Part shown: positions 625 through 42,070 of the stretch, piece after piece
How positions within the stretch are numbered: the stretch's first letter is position 1
Layout of the letters: each line of letters starts with the position of its first letter
DNA from: Malacoraja senta
Lineage: Eukaryota
Assembly: GCA_038087875.1 (NCBI GenBank)
Contig: CM075989.1
Coordinates: 22,322,001-22,386,000, forward strand
Length of the DNA: 64,000 nt
Reading direction: 5' to 3'
The notes under the pieces: generated by a model
Databases searched by the model: none
What the model saw: only the letters and a program-made list of their open reading frames with translations
What the model was told of the DNA's origin: nothing
Position numbers and translations under genes: made by a program

Positions 625-868
625 TTTAGTTTAGTTTAGAAGTACAGCGCGGAAACAGGTACTTTGGCCCACCGCGTCCGCGCCGACCAGCGATCCCCGC
701 TCACTAAAGCTATCCTACACACACAAGGGATAATTTACAATTATGCTAAGCCAATTAACCTACAAACCTGTACATCTTTGGAGTGTGGGAGGAAACCCGT
801 AGACTGGATTGAAACCGGGTCTTGGGCACTGCAAGGCAGCAACTCTACCGCTGTACCAATGTGCTGCC
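625..868 (-). mobile_element. HE1-type V-SINE with internal deletion
   Basis: Reverse complement has a tRNA-like head, the V-domain remnant GGTTTCCTCCCACACTCCAAAGA and a (CTAAA)n tail. Confidence 0.85.
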
Positions 869-1003
869 CATTCATTACATACCTTGAAATATCAAAGAGC
901 AATCCATAAATACCCAGGTTATTTGATCAGAGAATCACAGGATGCCTCTGCTCAGGGAGTGGCCCTCGTCAGACTTGTTGGTGGAGCTCCACGCAAGTTT
1001 ATC

Positions 1004-4000
1004 ATGGAGAAAGGGCGTAGGGGAAGGAGACGCACCGCAGGTAAAACCCAAGTTCCTGAGGGTAGCGGGCATCAATTAGAGGAGTCAGTGGCAGCGAGGC
1101 CATTAACTCCCGTTGCTGTCGAAAGTGCCGTTATACCGCCGGAGGCGGGGCGCAAGGCAGGACAAAAGTCGGCCCGACCAGTAGACTCCGATGAGTCAGA
1201 CCCGGAGGAATACCCTCCTCAGGCAGAAAATATAATGGCTGCTAGGGTCGCGAGTTTGGAACTTCTGATGGGGAAAATGATTTATAAAGAACCCCCACAG
1301 GAGGATTTCAGTCCGTGTTGGCCTATGGAGGATATAGCACAGGGGGTGCCTTGGATGGGACAGGCACAAGGATGGCCTACAGGAGAGCCATCAGGAATGC
1401 CTGTGCAGAAACAATACAGTGGTTGGCCTACAGGAGAGCCAGTGCCCGAAATGCCAGCAAAAAGGCAGTATATGTGTTGGCCTACCGGAGAGCTAGTACT
1501 AGAAATGCCTGAACAAAGGCAGTACAAACGTTGGGTGAGAGATGTGCCAACACCGACAATGGCTAAAGAAAAACAAATGAAGCGTTGGCCTAGAATTGAG
1601 CCAGCGCCAGCAGCACCTGAAACAGGGCTGCCTATCCGTGGGCCTCCAGGAGAGCCCGCGCAGGGGGAATCTGGCAGAGACCTTACTATGCAACGGCCAA
1701 TTGAAGGGCCAGGGCTAGACTTACCTGAAACAGGGGAGCCAGAAATTTCCCATCAAGAAGAGGAACATCTAGACTCAGATGATGAATTGTATGAGGACCA
1801 GAGCCCATTATCAGAGGTCAAAGTTCCAGGGCTGGCACAAAAGGTTGCTGTTCCCAGAGTAACAGGGGAACCTTTGAGAGAGAAAATAGCAATGACTATA
1901 AATTATCTGCTCTCACATCAGCTCCAGGAATTAACTATGGATGAGACTGTTAAAAAATATGAGACCCCGGCAAATTGTGAACTGCTAGCAGTCCCAGCGG
2001 TGAATAACTTAATATGGGGTTATTTGAGCATTGGATTACGCTCACAAGAATTGAAATTACAACGAGTGCTGAGATTGCTGGGGTCAGGCATTACGGCGTT
2101 CGCCAGGGGGTTGGATGAAGATTCTATATCTGATTCACAACAAGATGCCTTAGCACTCATGTGTAGTGCGCACTTTGAAATTAACTGTATTCGTAAAAGT
2201 GCAATAAGACTGAATATTCATCCTAAGTATGCAGGGCTCTGTAAACCATCCAATATACAAATGCCTAATCTGCTTTTTGGAGAAAATCTAGCAAAGAAGC
2301 TAAAAGACCTAAATGAAGAGTCAAAAACCATGAGTGGTATGTTGATGAAACCATCTGTGCTGAGCAGAGCGGTGCGAAGGCAGTATCCCTACAGACGGAA
2401 TGCTGGTGCTGGAGAAGGAACAAGCCGATCGTTCTCATATACACGTTGGTGTGCTGCACCGGGGATACGTGGAGGTTACAATGTGCCTACTAGAAGGGGA
2501 CAACATTTGCCGATGGCAAACCCCGAGGTAGGGGGGTCTGGTCTGGTAAGAAACACAACAAATGTTTTACACTCACAAGTAGGGGAAAGATTACGATTCT
2601 TCCTAAAGGAATGGCAATTAATAACAAATGATTTGTTTATACTGTGCAGCATTGTGGGATTTAAAATTGAGTTCTATCTACATTTGGATCCTCCTACTCG
2701 GCATATTTCAAACCGGTCACGTATTTTCTCAAAGGAAGAGAATACGCAGATCGAGGGAGAATTGAAAATTTTATGCGACAAAGGTGTAATAGAAAAGTCA
2801 GTAGAACAACACCATCAGTTTGTGTCAAGTATTTTTCCTAGAACAAAAAAGGATGGTGGATGTAGAATTATTCTGGATCTGACAAGTCTTAACCTTTTTG
2901 TACAATATAAACATTTCAAAATGGAAACATTCACTAATGCCATTCAGCTGGTCACAAGAAATTGCTACATGGCAAGCATAGATCTGCAAGATGCATATTA
3001 TTCTGTGGCAATGCATGGTAATGATCAAAGATATTTAAAATTTAGCTGGATGAGTCAGTTATGGCAATTTAAAGCATTGCCCAATGGTCTGACTTCAGCA
3101 CCAAGGTTATTTACAAAATTACTCAAACCAATTTTAGCTCTGTTAAGAGCTGAGGGCCATGTATTAATGGCTTATTTGGATGATATTCTGATTGTGGGGG
3201 ACACTTTGGCTACCCCAAAGGTGTCAGTATCAAGAGTCAAGTACATTTTTGAAAAAATGGGCTTCATTATTCACCCACAAAAATCGAAATTGTTACCAAG
3301 CAAGAAGATTGATTACCTAGGGTTCACAATTAACTCAGAACACATGGTAATCACCTTGCCAAAAGACAAAAGGCTGCAGTTAATTGAAGGTTGCACTAAG
3401 CTCATAAATGAGTACAAACCTTCAATTAGACAAGTGGCAAGCTTGCTGGGCAAATTAATTGCTGCTTTTCCAGCTGTAAGATTTGGACCATTGCATTATC
3501 AGCATTTGCAGAGGGCTAAGGTGCAAGCATTAAAGATGAATGCAGGGCATTTTGACAGGCCCATGCAATTGACAATTGAACCCATTACAGAAATAGAATG
3601 GTGGATTAACAATGTCTCTAATGCTTCCAGAAAAGTTTTGGTAGAAGCACCTTCCGTTATTCTACAGACTGATGTAAGTGCTCTAGGATGGGGCGCAACT
3701 AACATTGTTTCCAGCTGTGGAGGTAGGTGGAATGTGGATGAAGTACCTTTGCTTGAAAATCAAGGTATAAATTACCTAGAGCTGTTAGGAGCATTTTATG
3801 GGCTTAAAGCTTATTGCACTAATATGGGAAATGTGCATGTTCAGGTACAGGTTGACAATACTACAGCTGTAGCATATATAAATCACATGGGTGGTATCAA
3901 GTCAGAATCATGTGATACATTGGCAAATGAAATTCGGACCTGGTGTATTGCCAGGAAAATCTGGCTGTCAGCAATGTATTTACCAGGTAAATTTAACACA

Positions 4001-4335
4001 ATTGCAGACAAAAGGTCACGTAAATTTAATGATAATACAGAATGGATGTTGCATCATGAAATATTTAAGCAAATTGTAGCACAATTTGGAATGCCAGAGA
4101 TTGATTTGTTTGCATCAAGACTTAACCACCAATTGTCTAAGTATGTGTCATGGGAACCTCGGGGATTTTGGTGGTGCCAGATTGGCCTACACAGCTATGG
4201 TACCCACTGGTGTTAAACATGATCAAAATACTCCTTATGGTTATTCCAAAGCAGGTAAAACTGCTTGTAAACCCTGTAACTGAGGAACCACATCCTTTAC
4301 ATGATCGTATTGGTTTGTTGATTTGCAGATTCTGA
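1004..4335 (+). pseudogene. DIRS gag + pol (RT, RNaseH, Dam-methylase-like), one frame from ATG 1004, broken at ~4158
   Basis: RT motifs ASIDLQDAYY, LPNGLTSAPRLFTK, AYLDDIL (YLDD 3173-3184); RNaseH TDVSALGWG, INYLELL, VDNTTAVAYIN; MT-like IDLFASRLNHQL; continues in another frame as GILVVPDWPTQLW to 4335. Confidence 0.88.
1316..1740 (+). repeat. Degenerate ~54-bp (18-aa) coding tandem repeat in DIRS gag
   Basis: Units start at 1316, 1370, 1421, 1475, 1529, 1583, 1637, ~1691 (motif xWPTGEP..MP...QY). Confidence 0.75.
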
Positions 4336-5317
4336 TTAGGCCATATCTTGGAAGAGGATTATCAGACCGTACGGTGGATGTTATGGCAGCAGCCTGGAGG
4401 AATAGTACCCAGAAGCAGTACATTTCCTATATAAAGAAATGGGAGGTGTTCTGTTCAGAAAAGAATATTGCATATAACACAGCAGAAATTTCAGATGTAT
4501 TAGAGTTTCTTTCAACTCTTTACTTCGAATTAAAATTAAGTTATAGTGCAATCAATACTGCACGAAGTGCACTCTCTGCATATTTAAGCAGTGAATCAGA
4601 ACAAAATCCAATAGAATCACATCCTTGGGTCTGTAGGTTTATGAAGGGAATTTTCAAGACCAATCCTCCTGGACCTAGGTATACAGAAATCTGGAATGTA
4701 AAAGATGTACTGATGCTGCTGCGTGAATGGAATCCTATTGAAACTCTGTCATTGGCCAAAATTACCATGAAGTTGGTTATGCTCATGGCGTTAATTTCAG
4801 CTCGGAGAGTTCAAACATACAGAAATTAAGAATAGACAGGATGAAAGTAGGGGCAGATGCCTTTACATTCTATGTCTATGATTTACTGAAACAAAGTAGA
4901 CCTGGGTTCACGGGATGTAAGTTGGGGTTTTCAGCATATCCTACGGATCCATGGCTATGTGTAGTAACATATATAAGATGTTACATGGAAACAACCAGAA
5001 TGTTAAGAGGCACAGAATTAGCATTTTTTATTTGTCATAAAAGTCCTCATAAGAAAGTGTCAACACAGACAATTTCAAGATGGTTGAAACAGGTGTTGAT
5101 TTATTCAGGTATTGATACTGATAAATTTAAATCTCATTCCACCAGGGCGGCATCAACATCGGCGGCCAGGGATTCAGACGTTCCAATAGACCTTACCCTC
5201 GCGGCCGCAGGATGGGCAAGTAAACAGATGTTTCACAAGTATTACCATAAGGAGATTAAAGATCCCGGGATGTTTGGTGATGCCGTGCTGGATTCAGTAT
5301 TAAATCCCCCATTATGA
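4329..5317 (+). pseudogene. DIRS tyrosine recombinase, frameshifted at ~4818
   Basis: SAM-like N-part (YSAINTARSALS) and catalytic-type motifs SARRVQT, LLKQSRP, HSTR, AGW, FHKYY; adding one base after ACA restores TLQKLRIDRM and joins the two ORFs. Confidence 0.9.
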
Positions 5318-32999: not shown

Positions 33000-33382
33000 T
33001 TTTAGTTTAGTTTACAGATACGGCGCGGAAACAGGCCCTTCGCCCACTGACTTCATGCCGACCATCGACCTCCACAATTTAACTCTATCCGAGACAGCGC
33101 CCGTAGTCAGGATCGAACCCTTGTCTCTGGCAGCAACTCTACCACTGCGCCATCGTGCTGCACAGATATCATGGCATTATTTCAAACCAAGGTTCTGCAG
33201 GAACTCAAGGAGGGCTGACGGAAAGATTGGAATATTTATCGGGTGATGTAGCGGTAGAGTTCCTGTCCTACAAAGCCAGAGACCTGGGTTCGATCCTGAC
33301 CACGGGTGCTGTCTGTATGGTGTTTGTACATTCTCCCTGCGACAGCGTGGGTTTTCTCTGGGTGCTCCGGTTTCCTCCCACC
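33000..33382. mobile_element. Two partial HE1 SINEs, head to head (33000-33160 -, 33242-33382 +)
   Basis: B boxes GGATCGAACC and GGTTCGATCC; V-domain pieces. Confidence 0.75.
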
Positions 33383-33927
33383 GGGTCCTTGGGTCCAGAT
33401 AATTAGCCCAAGATAATTGTTTTCAGTTGCTGTGCTATTTAGAGTACTTATCTGCTCATTAATTTTCATTACAATTTGTTGTATTTATTTAATCTTTGGT
33501 TTCCCAATTGTTTCTGTGAATTTTATTGTCCCTACTGCTTAGAAGAAAGATATAAAATGTTTAGTGCCTCAGCCTCTTCCATAAACCTATTATAGCCTCT
33601 CCTAAGATAGACACAAAGTGCTGGAGTAACTCAGCGGGTCAGGCGACACCTCTGGAGAAAAGGAATAGATGACGTTCCGGGTTGAGACCCTTCTTCAGAC
33701 AAAATTTCTCCTTCTGATACCACAAAGGACTAAATTTAATTTTGTATCTATATTCTTTTTTAATGCATGTATATGAGCTTATAGATTATTTCCACATTTC
33801 TCGGCTTGCTTCGTATGGCGACTATGATATCTCTTTATCAATGGTTTGCTGCAACTTATTGTTCAATATTCATTACATAACAATTACAGAATTCATTACA
33901 GAAATACAGGGATCACAGAACACATAA

Positions 33928-34280
33928 TGCAGATGCTGGAAATCTGAAATAAAAAGCCAAAAATGCTGGGAACACTCAGCAGGTCTGGCAGCATCTGTGG
34001 AAAGAGAAACAGAGTTAATGTGTAGGAAGGAACTGCAGATGCTGGTTTAAACCGAAGATAGACACGAAAAGCTGAAGTAACTCAGCGGGACAGGCAGCAT
34101 CTCTGGAGAGTAGGAATGGGTTACGTTCTGGAGACCCTTCTTCAGACTGAGTTAATGTGTTAGGTTGGAGGCCCATTTCCAGTTCTGATGAAAAGACATC
34201 GACCTGAAATGTTAACTCTGCTTCTGTTTCCACAGATGCTGCCTGACCTGCTGTGTGTTTCCTATACGTCCTGTTTTTAT
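33928..34280. mobile_element. Older Penelope-derived inverted element with a younger one nested (34025-34148)
   Basis: GAGTTAATGTGT duplicated at 34013-34024 and 34149-34160. Confidence 0.75.
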
Positions 34281-35016
34281 TACGTGGGACCACCGATTTG
34301 TCAGCTGAGGCAAGGCGACTGGGTAAGAGGGAGGTGGGAGTGCAACAGCGAAAAGCTTTATTCCTTCTGATAAAAGCATACTAATGCTCCAATGTTAACT
34401 TATCAAATGTATGTAAATATTGAACTCCAATTTAATCTGGTAAAATCAAACATCAACAATTTTTAAAGGTTAGAAGAACCTTCTTAGTATATGGCTTGTC
34501 TACTTTGATTGAGGAGGCTTTAATGAAGACAATTATTCCATTCTCACCTTCAAGATTGGACAGATATGTTAGATAAGAAGGGTTGCTAATTTTCTATCCA
34601 TATTAACTAAGGGGAATTAAGCATCCCCTCATTTTGGATTCTGCATGAATTAAGCCAAAATTTTGAATTAACACATCAAGGGAATTATGTGTTAATTTTT
34701 TTATCTGATTAAATATAAGCCAGAGGCACTAATTAAACAATGAAACACATCCACTTGCATCCTGGTTTAGAGTGAATCGAGGTAACATACTGATATTACT
34801 GACCATGTACGAACACTGTTCCAACCTAACTCATTATTGAAGAGGAATGATTAATTAATTGAGAATATGGGACTCAAGTTATTAAGGAGTGAGGGAATTT
34901 CAGGCTAAAGAAATGCGAGTCCAAAAATGGAGAACCATAACATTGCATTTTAGAGTGGAGGGGAATTAAGGTGCTTACCTCCGCCCACAGAATTAGTGAA
35001 AATTATTAGGAAGAGG

Positions 35017-35070
35017 GGGGTGGGAGATTGCAACCTTCACGCGGTCCGCCCTGTTTCAACGAATGCAATC
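35017..35070 (+). ncRNA. Predicted minimal HDV-like self-cleaving ribozyme
   Basis: P1 GGGGTGG/CCGCCCT with G1-U wobble, P2 GATTGCA/TGCAATC, P3 ACC/GGT, L3 TTCACGC, J4/2 C-GAA. Confidence 0.75.
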
Positions 35071-35159
35071 AACCTGGCGTGCACAATCAAATAAGATCAA
35101 ATAGAACAAGTTGTCCTACAACTTTAGGCTGTGCACGCCATACGCAAGAAGAAGTAGAC
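35017..35159 (+). mobile_element. Short non-autonomous Vingi-type retroelement (ribozyme-headed)
   Basis: TSD TAGGAAGAGG at 35007-35016 and 35160-35169; tail CCATACGCAAGAAGAAG resembles 20355-20370; no tRNA A/B boxes. Confidence 0.78.
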
Positions 35160-35189
35160 TAGGAAGAGGGAGGAATGTAATGAAAGTGA

Positions 35190-35515
35190 AGATGGACACA
35201 AGAAGGTGGGGTGACTCAGCAGGTCAGGCAGCATCTCTGGGGAAGAGGAATACTGTAGGTGACGTTTTGGGTCGAGACCCATCTTCAGACCCGAAACATC
35301 ACCCATTCCTTTTCTCCAAAGATGCTGTCTAACCCACTGAGTTACTCCAGTTTTTTTTTGTCTTTCCTCGGTTTAAATCAGCATCTGCAGTCCCCTGACT
35401 CTCAGTCTGAAGAAGGGTCTCGACCCGAAAAGTCACTTGTTCCGTTTCCCCAGAGATGCTGCCTGTTCCGCTGAGTTACTCCAGCTTTTTGTGTCTATCT
35501 GCAGCTCCTTCGTAC
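35190..35515. mobile_element. Penelope-derived inverted/tandem pLTR fragments
   Basis: GACGTTTTGGGTCGAGACCCATCTTCAGAC and CTGAAGAAGGGTCTCGACCCGAAA. Confidence 0.8.
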
Positions 35516-35687
35516 ACAATGTACGGAAAGTGTCTTCTTCAGACACGTATAAACCACGGGATTACAACATAAATCCATGATGAACTCAACGTGAAGGATT
35601 TAATAGGGGTGAGGACTTAGCAACTGAATTTGGTTAGAAATCCACGAAGTAAAACAATACATTATGAGTGTGGCACAGTGGCGCAGC

Positions 35688-36258
35688 AGTAGAGTAGCTG
35701 CTTACAGCGCTTACAGCGCCAGAGACCCTTCTGAACCTTCTGAATTTTGTAGTCGGCAGGGCAGTACTCTGCATATCGCCAACTTGGACAATTTTACATT
35801 TTTACCAAGCCAATTAAACAAGGCAATTAACCTACAAACCTGTACGTCTTTGGAGTGTGGGAGGAATCCGAAGATCTCGGAGAAAACCCACGCAGATCAC
35901 AGGGAGAACGTACAAACTCCGTACAGACAGCACCCGTAGTCGGGATCGAACCCGGGTCTCTGGCGCTGCATTTTGCTGTAAGGCAGCAACTCCACCACTG
36001 TGCCACCGTGAGTGCCCAGGTTCGATCCTGGCTACGGGTGCTTGTCTGTACGGAGTTTGTACCTTCTACCCGTGACCTGCGTGGGTTTTATCCACACACT
36101 CCCACACTCCAAAGATGTACAGGTTTGTAGGTTAACTGGCTTGGTATAAATGTAAATTGTCCCTAGAGTAGGATAGTGTTAACGTGTGGGGATCGCTAGT
36201 CGGCGCGGACCCAGTGTGCCGAAGGGCCTGTTTCCACGCTGTATCTCTAAACTAAACT
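35688..36258. mobile_element. Plus-strand HE1 SINE split by an insert containing a minus-strand HE1 (~35790-36010)
   Basis: Head ends ..CCAGAGACCC at 35728 and resumes CCCAGGTTCGATCC at ~36015. Confidence 0.8.
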
Positions 36259-37094
36259 AGAAGCTAAATTAACAACTCAAGAAAAAAAAAAATCATAGTT
36301 TCCCAGTTAAATGTGCAGGCGTAGAACTGTCGAGTAATGTACGATGATGATTGGTTTGCTCCATCCTATGTCCTGTCCGTTGCCCAGCTACTGAACTATT
36401 ACCCCTAACGTGTACAGTACAAGTTTGATTTATGATTGAAAAATTGCCAGAAGTCTTACACAAAATCGCATTTGAACAACTGTATCCAGCCTGTGTACAC
36501 TCCTCCAGAAGGACTATTCCAGGTGGCATGTTGACAAGACAATTAGGTGATTAATTTCCTGCTGAGTACAATTTTAAAATCGATTATACTTGTTTAATCA
36601 GTGCAATGCTAATCTCAATAAAATTGTTCAGAGAATGCATTTGTTAACATCCACACAGCATGGTGATAATATTTATAATGTATCAGGTCCATTAACACCT
36701 TGAGTGACTTTTATTTTCACAACTAGTTAAACATTATATTTCAAAAGCTGTGCATGTATAGAATGCTTTTGTATTCCTCATGTTAAATTGTATCTGTTTT
36801 TTCTTAATACGTTCACTGTGGAATCCATGGCTGATTTGAGCTAATCAATCCTCAGTGTCTGAAGAAGGGTCTCGGCCTGAGAAGTCACCCATTCCTTCTC
36901 TCCAGAGATGCTGCCTGTCCCACTGAGTCACTCCAGCATTTTGTGTCTATCCTCTAATGCCTCCTGCTGCGGAAAAGGTTAAATGGTGAATTTTAAAGGA
37001 TTAATTTTGGATTATTGCGCGAGAATCAGTGATTCCAGTGGTAAAGATGAAATTTAATGCATCCCTACACCTACAGTAGCTTCTGCAATCAAGG

Positions 37095-37570
37095 ATCAAG
37101 GAATCAGGGGGTACGGGGAGAAAGCAGGAACGTGGTACTGATTTTGCATGATCAGCCATGATCATATTGAATGGCGGTGCTGGCTCGAAGGGCCGAATGG
37201 CCTATTCTTGCACCTATTTTCTATGTTTCTATGGTCTCTTAATGCTGTTTCTGGGACGTTGATTGCAAGTTTAGTTTAGAGAACAGTGTGGAAACAGGCC
37301 CTTCGGCCCATCAAGTTGGCATCAACTGCACACCAGTTCTATGCTATCCCACTGTTGCATCCTGCACCCTAGGGACAATTTACAGAAGCCAATTAACCTG
37401 CAAACCCGCACGTCTTTGGAATGTGGGAGGAAACCGGAGCACCTGGAGAAAACCCACGAGGTCACAAGGAGAATTATACAAACTAAACACAGACAGCACC
37501 CGGGGTCAGGATCGAACCCGGGCCTCTGGCTCTGCAAGGCAGTAGCTCTACTGCTGTGCCACTGTGGCAC
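37095..37570. mobile_element. CR1 tail (+, 37095-37235) and HE1 SINE (-, 37268-37570)
   Basis: Matches other copies in the window. Confidence 0.82.
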
Positions 37571-38120
37571 CTCCAATGATTAGTGATACCCCCAGATGGT
37601 GAATGGCACAATATAAACAAGTCTTACTTTCAACTGCACACACAAGATTTGATGAGCGATGATTGTCTAGAAGGTAGTAAAACTATAATGTTATTTGTTC
37701 ATGACTGATTGTTTTTCTCAATAAACACTATGGTATTGCATGTGAATTGAAATCCCTTCCTGAAATTTAGCTCCATGAGAGACTGAGAATATCTTTGCAT
37801 TTCCTGTGTTTCAGTCCCGTGTAGACAGACAGAGGGAGCAGTATTAACAATCAAGAGCATGTGAAGTGTCTTGGACTCAGGTAGGGAGGGATTGGACCAG
37901 GGGGGATAGGATGGAGTCGAGGTATGTGGAAATTAATTTGGTCTGAAGAAGGGTCTCGACCCGAAACTTCACCCAATCCTTCTCTCCAGAGATGCTGCCT
38001 GTCCCGCTGAGTTACTCCAGCATTTGGTGTCTACCTTCGATAATCCTGAGGGCACTGTTTTGATTGATTGAACAATTCAGCAAGGAGACAAATCCTTCAG
38101 CTCACCAAGTCCACGTTGAC

Positions 38121-38223
38121 GGTAGACAAAAATGCTGGAGAAACTCAGCGGGTGCAGCAGCATCTATGGAGCGAAGGAAATAGGCAAAGTTTCGGGCCAA
38201 AACCCTTCTTCAGACTTCTTTAA
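38121..38223 (-). mobile_element. Penelope-derived short insertion with 18-bp TSD
   Basis: CACCAAGTCCACGTTGAC at 38103-38120 and 38224-38241. Confidence 0.85.
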
Positions 38224-38534
38224 CACCAAGTCCACGTTGACCATTGATTATCCATTGAAACTAGTTCTGCTTTGTCCCACTTTCCCATCCACTCCCTGCA
38301 CACTGAGCACAATTTAGAGGCCTATGAACCTACAAACCCACACGACTTTGGGATGTTGGATTGAAAAAAAAAAATTGGATTCGTTCAGTACACACATGAC
38401 AATAAACTGAACTGAGCTACTCTAGGAAAGAACGGATATTGGAGACGGCATAATATGGTGTTGTCAAAAAAGGACGGGAGCATGTTATACCAGCATGACA
38501 AGGTTTGGCCTGGAGTGTTGACTCTGTTATAGCC

Positions 38535-39290
38535 AATAGACAATAGGTGCAGGGGTAGACCATTCAGCTCTTCGAGACAGCACCGCCATTCACTGTGATC
38601 ATGGCTGATCATCCACAATCAGTACCCCGTTCCTGCCTTCTCCCCATATCCCCTGACTCTGCTATCTTTAATAGCTCTATCTATCTCTCTCTTGAAAGCA
38701 TCCAGAGAATCGGCCTGCACTGCCCTCTGAGGCAAAGAATTCCGCAGATTCACAACTCTCCGGGTAAAAAAGTTTTTCCTCATTTCCGTTCTAAATGGCC
38801 AACCCCTTATTCTTAAACAGTGGCCCCTGGTCCTGGACTCCCCTGACATCGGGAACATGTTTCCTGCCTGTAGTGTGTCCAATCCCTTAATAAACCTATA
38901 TGTTTCAATAAGATATCCTCTCATCCTTCTAAATTCTGGTGTATACAAGCTCAGTCGCTCCATTCTTTCAACATCTGACAGTCCCGCCATCCCGGGAATT
39001 AACCTCATGAACCTACGCTGCACTCCCTCAATAGCAAGAATATCCTTCCCCAAATTTGGAGAACTAAACAGCACACAATACTCCAGGTGTGGTCTCACCA
39101 GGGCCCCGTACAACTGAAGAAGGACCTCTTTGCTCCGATACTCAACTCCTCTTGTTATGAAGGCCAACATGCCATTCGCTTTCTCCACTGCATGCTTACT
39201 TTCAGTGACTGATGTACAAGGACACCCAGATCTCGTTGTACTTCCCTTTTCCTAACTTGAAACTATTCAGATAATAATCTGCCTTCCTGT
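38535..39290 (-). mobile_element. CR1/HER1 LINE 3' fragment
   Basis: KANGMLAFITRGVEYRSKEVLLQLYGALVRPHLEYCV..RRVVNLRNSLP. Confidence 0.93.
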
Positions 39291-39606
39291 TGTGAAATAC
39301 TGGAGGAAAAAGTGGTTCCAGAGTGAGGATTGAAAGAGCCCGCTGTCGGATTATTGCAGGAGTGTGATATTGTAGTCCTCGTAACCTGATACCAGATCAA
39401 TGTAACTCCATTGGAAGAGTGTGATTGGTGTGAGGCAAATGAGAGAAATGCTTGCCTTGTTTTTTTGCTTAAATTAGTTGGTACCTTTTGGAGGGACATG
39501 GGCCAAACATACGCAGGTGCGACTAGTGTAGCTGGGACATGTTGGCTTGTGTGGGCAAGCTGGGCCGAAGGGTCTGCTTCCACACTGTATCACTCCATGA
39601 CTCTGT

Positions 39607-39960
39607 GACGACAGATGGCGCAATGGGCTAAGTGTTCGGCTGGCAACCGGAAGGTAGCCGGTTCGAATCCCGCTTGGAGTGCATATTGTCGTTGTGTCCT
39701 TGGGCAAGACACTTCACCCACCTTTGCCTGCGTGTGAATGTGTGTGAATGTGTGTGAGTGATTGGTGGTGGTCGGAGGGGCCGTAGGCGCAGATTAGCAG
39801 CCACGCTTCCGTCAGTCTGCCCCAGGGCAGCTGTGGCTACAGAAGTAGCTCACCACCACCGAGTGTGACTGAGGAGTGAATGAATAATGCGATGTAAAGC
39901 GCCTTGAGTATTAGAAAGGCGCTATATAAATCCCATCCATTATTATTATTATTATTATTA
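39607..39960 (+). mobile_element. tRNA-derived CORE-SINE with L2-type tail (teleost AFC/SINE_TE-like)
   Basis: A box TGGCGCAATGG 39616-39626, B box GGTTCGAATCC 39660-39670, CORE GTGTCCTTGGGCAAGACACTT, tail TGTAAAGCGCCTTGAG..AAAGGCGCTATATAAAT, then (ATT)n. Confidence 0.85.
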
Positions 39961-40125
39961 TGATTCTAGTGTAAAGCAGCTTCATCCAAGCTAACATTTC
40001 TTATCTGAAGAAAGTTCCCAACCCAAAACATCACCTATCCTTGTTTTCCAGAGATGCTGCCTGACCTGCTGAGTCACTTCAGCACTTTGTTTCTTGTGGA
40101 AGCGGTGTCTTTTTAAGTTACTGAT

Positions 40126-40385
40126 GGGCGGCACGGTGGCGCAGTGGTAGAGTTGCTGCCTCACAGCGCCAGAGACCCAGGTTTGATCCTGACTACGGGT
40201 GCTGTCTGTACGGAGTTTGTACGTTCTCCCTGTGACCGTGTGGGTTTTCTCCAAGAGCTCCGGTTTCCTCCCACATTCCAAAGACGTGCGGATTTGTAGG
40301 TTAATTGGCTTCGGTAAAATTTATGAATTATCCCTAGTGTGTGTAGGATAGTGTTAGTGTGTGGGGATCGCTGGTTGGTGTGGGC
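40126..40385 (+). mobile_element. HE1-type V-SINE
   Basis: A/B boxes, V domain. Confidence 0.9.
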
Positions 40386-40844
40386 TCATTACATGGTGTA
40401 TGGATACTGTATGACTCTACACTGATTCCACACTGTATGATTCCATAACCCCATGACCTAATTCGCCTACATTAACCTTCAGCACTTATGGTGCTAGACT
40501 TAGCCTGTAGTAAGTTGGCTTGCCTTACTGTTCAATGTATTGAGGTCATTGCACCATTAAGTGCTAATGCCTGAATCTTGACATAGATTTGTATGTTGCC
40601 CTATAATGTAATTGTGAAATACTTATAGTAAATCATTCTTCAAATTTACTTTTAATTCTTTGAACCAATCTTTCCCTTAGAGAGTTGGGCTCTGTGTGTA
40701 GATAGCTATTATAACTGGCACATCCCATCTGACCTACAATGTGCCTTCAAGTTCAATGTGTTTTCACTAGAGGTATTTTGCTGAAAATCTTGATCTATCT
40801 GACGCTGTGTTTTGTCAGATAGTCTATGTAGTCATATAGTCCAT

Positions 40845-41240
40845 ATGGCAGCTTACAACCCAGCGGTATGAATATTGAGTAACACTTGCTTTCCCTCTCT
40901 CTCCATCCCTCCCCCACCCTAGTTCTCCCACTAGTTTCACTGTCATTCTGATGAATTACAGTGATTCTATGCCTCCTCAGCTAACAATGAACCATTCTAC
41001 ATTCTTGTACGGAGTTTGTACGTTTTCTCTGTGACCTGTGTGGGTTTTCACCGAGAACTGGTTTCCTCCCACACTCAAAAGAAGTACAGGTTTGTAGGTT
41101 GATTGGCTTGATATAATTGTAAAAATTGTCCCTAGTGTAGGATGGTGTTAATATGCGGGGATCGCTGGTTGGTGCGGACTCAGTGGGCCGAAGGGCCTGT
41201 TTCCACGCTGTATAACTAAACTAAACTAAACTAAACTAAA
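40845..41240 (+). mobile_element. Penelope fragment (40845-41005) followed by a 5'-truncated HE1 SINE
   Basis: GGCAGCTTACAACCCAGCGGTATGAATATTGA (GSLQPSGMNI, GIY-YIG end); SINE V domain and (CTAAA)n. Confidence 0.78.
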
Positions 41241-41494
41241 GATGTTCACACTCTATCATAGAACCCAGGGTTCCTGAAAGAGCTACTTTTCCTGATATCT
41301 TTGCCCTCCCTGTTTGAATTATTTAAGGATGACTTAACATTAAGGGCAAAACATGTCATTGTGTGGTGTCCAAGAACGTATTCCTTCATCGTAGTATTGA
41401 TAATGGAGAAAATTAGTGGATTTGTTCAAAACATTCAGATGATGAGTTTTGCTCGGGATGTTGTCTAATAGAAAATTTCTTTGAAGTTAAAGTA

Positions 41495-42070
41495 ACTGGA
41501 ATCGTAAACCAGAGGACGTAGGTTTAAGGTGAGGGGGGAAAGATTGACCTTTTTCACAAAGAGGGCGGTGAGTGCATGGAACAAGCTGCCGGAAGAGGTA
41601 GTTGAGGCAGGGGCTATTACAATGTTTAAGAAACATTCAGACAGGTTCGTGGATAGGACAGGTTTAGAGGGATATGGGCCAAATGCAGGCAGGTAGGACT
41701 AGTGTAGATGGGACATGTTGGTCGGTGTAGGCAAGTTGGGCCGAATGGCCTGTTTCTCTGCTCCATGACTCTATAACCAGAAAAGCAATCTCAAAACACA
41801 TAGAAAAATAGAAACATAGAAAAATAGGTGCTGGAGTAGGTCATTTGGCCCTTTGAGCCAGCACCACCATTCAATATGATCATGGCTGATCATCTAAAAT
41901 CAGTTTCCCATTCCTGATTTCTCCCCATATCCCTTGATTCCGTTAGCCCTAAGAGTTAAATCTAACTCTCTCTTGAAAACATCCAGTGAATTGGCCTCCA
42001 CTGCCTTCTGTGGCAGAGAATTCCACAGATTCACAACTCTCTGGGTGAAAAAGTTTTTCCTCATCTCAGT
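41495..42070. mobile_element. Two CR1 3' ends, tail to tail (41495-41775 +, 41800-42070 -)
   Basis: Typical CR1 3' sequences. Confidence 0.82.

Follow-up and report, generated by a model that had tools for sequence, protein, structure and literature searches.

A predicted minimal, P4-less HDV-like ribozyme at the 5' end of a Vingi-type LINE and its short derivative in Malacoraja senta

Background

Among described systems, the ribozyme that heads L1Tc/NARTc and the ingi/RIME/SIDER elements of trypanosomatids (L1TcRz; PMC3185411, PMC4035085) is one of the closest to the sequence considered here. In these elements an HDV-like ribozyme forms the first bases of an Ingi-group LINE and also heads a short, internally deleted derivative, the two sharing about 77 nt of 5' head; P1.1 has one base pair, and cleavage falls at +1. 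Ribozyme behaviour has been shown for the L1Tc/NARTc and SIDER heads (PMC3185411, PMC4035085), and a review says likewise (PMC6765202). Elements in which the 5' and 3' ends of a LINE are joined, with no tRNA head, have been described for Vingi, RTE, Ingi and R2 (PMC5786205), and the R2 SIDEs arose in the same way, by internal deletion (PMC3414825). Vingi is absent from the six clades with 5' ribozymes in the portion of PMC5786205 considered here. It is a compact element with a single ORF carrying APE and RT, and it lacks the RNase H that Ingi has (PMC13708176).

P4-less minimal HDV-like ribozymes are known to cleave and to depend on a catalytic C (bioRxiv 2023.06.13.544163; PMC10879173; PMC6326823). 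They include the theta ribozymes of gut phages, of about 54 nt, which often lie beside a tRNA; the eukaryote set (human, mouse, protists) in the parts of PMC10879173 considered here is given without a theta match.

We analysed a 54-nt sequence within a 64-kb stretch of Malacoraja senta DNA (hereafter the window). It is probably a minimal HDV-like ribozyme, predicted to be self-cleaving, with which a Vingi-type LINE and a short non-autonomous derivative of that LINE both begin. The arrangement is that of L1TcRz, down to the 1-bp P1.1, the shared head of about 77 nt and the predicted cleavage at +1, but the P4 helix of L1TcRz is missing, cleavage is predicted where L1TcRz activity is experimentally established, and the host is a large animal genome rather than a trypanosomatid.

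Results and discussion

The ribozyme fold

The fold occupies the following positions of the window.

35017..35070, + strand: P4-less HDV-like ribozyme fold (descriptor match, chance control, covariation, CPEB3 alignment of a sister copy)
35017..35023, + strand: 5' strand of P1, paired with 35046-35052, with a G1-U wobble
35026..35032, + strand: 5' strand of P2, paired with 35064-35070 (two-sided changes in 7/7 pairs)
35033..35045, + strand: P3 (35033-35035 with 35043-35045) and L3 (35036-35042)
35053..35059, + strand: P1.1 G and a 6-nt linker in place of P4
35060..35063, + strand: J4/2, CGAA, with candidate catalytic C35060 (CPEB3 model alignment; C in 5/5 metagenome relatives)

The original prediction had described a nested double pseudoknot of P1, P2, P3 and P1.1. 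Its helices and coordinates proved exact, in agreement with the descriptor search and covariation described below, and re-reading the sequence confirmed the placement of G35053 and of C35060 followed by GAA. C35038 pairs with G35053 to form the 1-bp P1.1, J1/2 is 2 nt long, and 7 nt separate P1 from the catalytic C. Cleavage is predicted between 35016 and G35017. The partner LINE described below has T-A at the P1 pair that is T35021-G35048 in the window copy, and J4/2 reads CTAA in the LINE and in older subfamilies versus CGAA in the window copy.

The window copy is slightly off the family type at two positions. Position 35042 is T in the family (75 of 78 copies examined), giving an L3 of TTCACGT that is identical to the consensus loop of RF00622, and 35058 is mostly G (82 of 100 rows listed, counted by hand), so that the linker hexamer is TTTCGA in the family and TTTCAA in the window copy. 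The purine-rich upstream flank of the window copy is also predicted to pair with the ribozyme core. For these reasons the window copy may be slower than the source copies.

A relaxed HDV descriptor (a 7-bp P1 starting with G, a P2 of 6-8 bp, a 3-bp P3, a 7-nt L3, a G after P1 and C-N-A before P2) matched only at 35017 on both strands of the 64-kb window, and had no match in 40 random sequences, each 64 kb long and with the dinucleotide frequencies of the window. The descriptor search proposed with the original prediction thus returned this site as its sole match. When the catalytic position was set to A, T or G, the window held 0, 0 and 1 matches. The nested folding energy of the region is ordinary (z = 0.04), as is expected of a pseudoknot.

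An Rfam scan of the window region gave no ribozyme match for the window copy at E ≤ 10. A sister copy (L002) matched the mammalian CPEB3 family RF00622 at 17.5 bits (E 0.024) and RF02682 at 14.4 bits, both in the predicted register. RF00622 has a gathering score of 35 bits and a P4, and both copies fall outside the family, L002 by its score and the window copy by the lack of a match. The RF00622 alignment places the residues typical of HDV-like ribozymes where they are expected, with a wobble or pair at G1, U..C-G in L3 and C-N-A-A in J4/2; fixed residues of this kind are described in PMC6326823. G1-U is found in 7 of the 8 rows of our own alignment.

A short element with sharp ends

The ribozyme is the first part of a non-coding retroelement of 138 nt that ends in an (AAG)n tail and is flanked by target-site duplications (TSDs). 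The layout is as follows.

35007..35016, + strand: left TSD, identical to 35160-35169
35017..35093, + strand: element positions 1-77, stemming from the partner LINE's 5' UTR
35094..35115, + strand: middle segment, unmatched in the LINE copies examined and variable between subfamilies
35116..35154, + strand: LINE 3'-end part, with the last ORF codons and stop, a short 3' UTR and the (AAG)n tail
35076..35139, + strand: hairpin with a 10-bp stem (35076-35085 with 35130-35139) that joins the 5'-derived and 3'-derived parts
35160..35169, + strand: right TSD, after 5 extra bases (35155-35159)

The 10-bp TSD that had been predicted to adjoin G1 is present on both sides. Its end had been called ambiguous by one G; this is true of the window copy taken singly, but other copies fix the start of the element at 35017. 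Element positions 11-77 are 89.6% identical to a near-complete LINE copy (L097), positions 1-10 are present in two other LINE copies (L108, L109), and the 3'-end part matches the L097 3' end at 38 of 39 bases (element positions 100-138). With both ends from one LINE, TSDs, no ORF and no tRNA-derived head, the element has the makeup of a bipartite non-autonomous LINE derivative. A Pol III SINE was rejected as a reading of it: there is neither a tRNA head nor a nearby tRNA, and simple patterns found no A or B box in the element.

The hairpin is far more stable than expected (z = -5.08; 0 of 200 shuffles fold as well). The segment that follows the ribozyme is complementary to the 3' UTR at 10 of 10 positions in the short element and 9 of 10 in the LINE (L097, L108), so that the two ends of the 3-kb LINE RNA could pair through such segments. 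Both segments contain the palindrome GTGCAC and may alternatively be a repeated protein-binding site.

The element is abundant. A DNA search of the same genome returned 2,344 candidates, of which 40 were scored (95-100% identity), and an exact 19-mer from the ribozyme core occurs 2,864 times. A 22-letter pattern spanning the catalytic site occurs 5,269 + 569 + 288 = 6,126 times over the variants counted, a lower bound on copy number. The best 30 copies, a sample picked for similarity, all start at G1 and end in (AAG)n. In another sample of 30, selected by the core plus a defect further downstream, the match starts at position 1 or 2 in 24 copies (one mismatch allowed), and one copy is clearly truncated.

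The boundary at G1 was examined in 50 distinct full-length copies by a search that did not let the TSD run into the element. A TSD of at least 8 bases was found in 39 and none was called in 11. It ends at -1, the base before G1, in 31 of the 39 and is separated from G1 by 1-4 extra bases in the other 8, so the genomic copies pile up at G1 as predicted. The last TSD base is T in 16 of the 31 (L001-L090), in a sample biased toward G by the first query, suggesting a preference in second-strand nicking.

The element is nearly identical in 24 public runs carrying eight organism labels and a metagenome. These runs are assembled contigs, and 23 are not on record as RNA; the loose contig ends at 35017 in four runs with four organism labels (39, 1, 7 and 1) therefore only repeat the genomic boundary. 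Variants at a frequency of at least 5% in four runs lie at 35042, 35048, 35058 and 35061, with none at 35060; the common variants affect J1/2, the linker, one pair that is U-G or U-A, and the second base of J4/2.

Other short subfamilies (L033, L035, L039, L048, L051, L054, L056) keep a LINE-type head, with the T-A pair and CTAA or CCAA, and differ from one another in the middle segment, suggesting more than one independent internal deletion.

The partner LINE

In some copies the 3' end of the element is preceded by other sequence, which led to the 3' end of a LINE. It occurs 337 times in the genome at up to two mismatches and encodes the last part of an ORF, in which there is a zinc-knuckle-like motif. 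Related proteins tile along near-complete L097 up to the ORF end. Each is a single protein of about 1,000 aa whose domains are APE, RT and at most a zinc motif; none gave an RNase H match, and this is the domain content of Vingi. The LINE copies examined are interrupted by stops and frameshifts; one of them (L103/L104) spans about 2.8 kb between TSDs.

The P4-less core was present at all 12 LINE 5' ends examined. The first seven bases are intact in two and differ by one base in two more; the remaining eight are more divergent or are cut there, several at inversion junctions. The LINE head differs from that of the short element in a T-A pair in place of T-G and in CTAA in place of CGAA. By this sequence comparison the short element is an internally deleted, bipartite derivative of an autonomous Vingi-type LINE of the same genome, of a kind described in PMC5786205, and its ribozyme fold is inherited from that LINE. 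Because LINE heads carry the P4-less core, the loss of P4 belongs to the autonomous lineage and not to the short element. The compact ribozyme had been predicted as a feature of the short element; it is there, but its origin lies in the autonomous LINE.

By eye, the 5' segments of Vingi-2_Gav, Vingi-4_Crp, Vingi-1_BF and Vingi-2_SPur have the same core as the partner LINE, which we class as Vingi-type from its domain content and 5' ends rather than from a tree. Its C-terminal motif, too, presumably resembles that of Vingi. An RTE partner had been considered from the (AAG)n tail and was set aside on the Vingi-like 5' end, likewise a tree-free judgement. The retrotransposon context of the original prediction is therefore borne out by the copies and the partner LINE, but the clade is none of R2, RTE and Ingi; it is Vingi, which is a sister of Ingi.

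The LINE C-terminus is 83% identical (L096:131-451) to a protein of the eel Synaphobranchus kaupii and 84-90% identical (L096:131-451; L097:560-901) to a protein from a JGI contig; horizontal transfer of the Vingi lineage is possible. In several long copies (L097, L099, L109, L110, L113, L114) the 5' part runs in the opposite orientation to the remainder, a pattern that twin priming would be expected to leave.

Distant relatives and covariation

A metagenome scan yielded 14 loci that encode relatives 40-66% identical to the query. The strict descriptor matched upstream of the ORF at three (L116, L123, L124), and two more (L117, L120) fit with one P1 mismatch. In these five the fold lies directly upstream of the ORF and has a real P4: P1 and the catalytic C are separated by 21-35 nt with a hairpin, versus 7 nt in the window copy. 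The C at the catalytic position is kept in all five. The other nine loci lack the fold. Matches at six of them (L122, L125-L129) start inside the ORF, L118 has no fold upstream of its ORF, and L119 and L121 have G-rich structured leaders (L119:18-140, L121:238-340) that do not fit the HDV descriptor and may be divergent or extended ribozyme variants. Searches for further relatives with DNA context gave none in viral contigs or prokaryote genomes. At the base of P4 in L117, L120, L123 and L124 the two sides read AGTA and GAA, which we take to resemble a loop E or sarcin-ricin motif.

We aligned the five relatives with the window copy, L002 and one LINE copy (L109). Of the 144 cells, 98.6% are paired, and 13 of the 18 pairs show two-sided changes, including 7 of 7 in P2; the rows were partly picked for fit and represent about five independent lineages. 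None of 500 shuffles scored as high, and slid controls were 38-44% paired. P1.1 is invariant across the alignment and so is without covariation support. Independent support for the fold on Vingi heads comes from the supplement of PMC5786205, which prints the four Vingi segments named above with the same core and a P4.

Comparison with theta ribozymes

Theta ribozymes resemble the ribozyme of this family in lacking P4, in their length of about 54 nt, in a P3 of ACC/GGT, in a J4/2 of CTAA or CGAA, in the short J1/2 and L4 and in the hexamer TTTCGA (PMC10879173). TTTCGA is the L4 of 317 of the 7,704 rows of the theta table (PMC10879173, supplementary file 6), which are computational matches, and 23 of the 24 TTTCGA rows shown have the same TTC start of L3. 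These TTTCGA rows carry one base more (G-A-TTTCGA) than the Vingi family linker, and no row with the exact parse GT-TTCGA was found in the portion of the table considered here; the exact P4-less core pattern had no match in viral contigs. In the four theta ribozymes that have been tested, P1 and the catalytic C lie 8-9 nt apart, as read from primers, so that the window copy, with 7 nt and its 1-bp P1.1, is shorter by 1-2 nt, but linkers of 7 nt do occur in the theta table. Theta ribozymes differ in their phage context, their frequent position beside a tRNA, their 2-bp P1.1 and their mostly 8-nt linker. The present sequence belongs to a retroelement of an animal genome, has no tRNA nearby and has U opposite U at the second P1.1 position.

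A link to the CPEB3 ribozyme

The mammalian CPEB3 ribozyme (RF00622) shares with the ribozyme of this family, as aligned through L002, the L3 heptamer, the G-U after P1, the CGAA of J4/2 and the G1-U wobble, and differs in its 7-bp P4, its P2 and P3 sequences and its single copy in an intron. One crocodilian Vingi head is nearly identical to this active ribozyme. With the variable part of P4 set aside, a hand count has the 5' end of Vingi-2_Gav and the human CPEB3 ribozyme agreeing at 51 of 54 positions, 37 of the first 40 aligned bases and all of the last 14 (sequences from the PMC5786205 supplement and the PMC5984629 primers). CPEB3 also has its 7-bp P4 stem in common with SINE2-1_AMi of the alligator. 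These comparisons suggest that the CPEB3 ribozyme is a domesticated Vingi head.

Our literature search found no paper that treats CPEB3 together with Vingi. In the available text of PMC8233481 the terms retrotranspos-, transposable, origin and Vingi do not occur, and the portion of PMC10919898 considered makes no link between CPEB3 and Vingi. One human Vingi fossil is reported in PMC5753468, in the available part of which the word ribozyme is absent. The near identity of CPEB3 and a crocodilian Vingi head makes the origin of the CPEB3 ribozyme directly testable.

Mechanism and rival explanations

We think it likely that the head self-cleaves at G1 and that copying by the LINE protein begins at the 3' end which both elements share, in line with the behaviour shown for the L1Tc/NARTc and SIDER heads. 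Transcription of an element copy would start at an internal promoter or come about by read-through, the promoter-free course assumed in the original prediction; the transcript would fold, and C35060 would catalyse cleavage just 5' of G1, yielding a uniform 5'-OH end shielded by the fold. The LINE protein would then bind this RNA at the common 3' end with its (AAG)n tail and insert it by target-primed reverse transcription with a TSD of 8-13 bp. As cleavage would fall upstream of the ribozyme, every full-length copy would inherit it. Selection would act on source copies, and individual copies such as that in the window would decay neutrally and may be slower.

The main competitor, which we hold to be unlikely, accepts the fold as real but makes cleavage of the P4-less form slow or secondary and lets an internal Pol II promoter set the 5' end; the fold would then be kept for 5' protection, for translation initiation of the LINE ORF or for recognition by the LINE protein. 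The L1Tc head is indeed both promoter and ribozyme (PMC3185411), HDV-like folds in retroelements have been proposed as IRES and protein-binding sites (PMC6765202), and the minimal ribozymes that have been tested have longer linkers. Both accounts agree with a fixed 5' end, and the TSD data cannot separate transcription initiation from cleavage. What tells against a purely structural role is that the catalytic C, the J4/2 adenines, L3 and the G1-U wobble are kept in distant relatives. The single extra G that copying of a cap would leave was absent from the 8 copies with extra 5' bases, a weak argument since such a G can be absorbed into the TSD call. An internal promoter and self-cleavage are not mutually exclusive.

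We find it much less probable still that the loss of P4 inactivated an ancestral ribozyme and that the short element amplifies regardless of a relic head. P4 is kept in 5 of 5 metagenome relatives, and at least 288 copies have C>T at the catalytic site, but such copies are expected from decay of a CpG after insertion. Genome-wide, the 22-letter pattern has TG (C>T) at this CpG in 288 copies, CA (G>A) in 569 and CG or CT in 5,269; a control CpG in the linker is skewed alike (by hand count, 47 CA and 27 TG among 300 listed rows), and the asymmetry is thus not peculiar to the catalytic site. The P4-less form is present in the autonomous LINE and in several subfamilies, the changes from LINE to short element preserve all helices, and the replacement hexamer matches one that is frequent in phage minimal ribozymes. 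That the site is a chance match to a permissive descriptor has a vanishingly small probability in our judgement. The ordinary folding energy and the missing Rfam match of the window copy would fit such a reading, which is refuted by covariation, by a TSD boundary that coincides exactly with the element 5' end at G1, and by the random-window control.

Other features of the window

At 809-4216 the window holds an open frame of 1,135 aa with an RT domain, followed at 4323-4829 by a frame with a phage-integrase N-terminal domain; together these are likely to be a young retroelement of the DIRS type (tyrosine recombinase). The region 33000-42000 is dense in interspersed repeats, with at least two other short families around the element, which we assume resemble the HE1-type SINEs of elasmobranchs.

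Conclusions

A literature search, which left the key 2009-2011 papers, Repbase, Dfam and patents outside its range, found no description of this element or of a Vingi ribozyme. The 2009-2011 papers on HDV-like ribozymes reportedly include examples from sea urchin, amphioxus and lamprey. Some of these may be Vingi heads that go by a different name, and ribozymes on Vingi may thus be partly known already. The P4-less, high-copy animal form is the part for which no earlier description was found in the literature searched.

Our judgement is evenly balanced on a wider reading, in which an active P4-less HDV-like ribozyme has reached thousands of copies in an animal genome and exists in several species, its TTTCGA-C would be a minimal solution like that of theta ribozymes, reached by deletion of P4 from a Vingi 5' ribozyme, Vingi heads would be of CPEB3 type, and CPEB3 would be a domesticated Vingi 5' end. 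Natural minimal HDV-like ribozymes have so far come from phages and metagenomes; the present one would belong to an animal retrotransposon, with a clear role there and a clear ancestry, and could be compared with thousands of natural variants and with relatives that bear P4. Vingi would join the clades with 5' ribozymes listed in PMC5786205. A ribozyme at the Vingi 5' end would also carry practical weight, because RNA-only platforms for gene insertion employ anole Vingi-1 with its native 5' UTR retained (PMC13708176), and a well-amplified element of 138 nt would mark the minimal cis signals.
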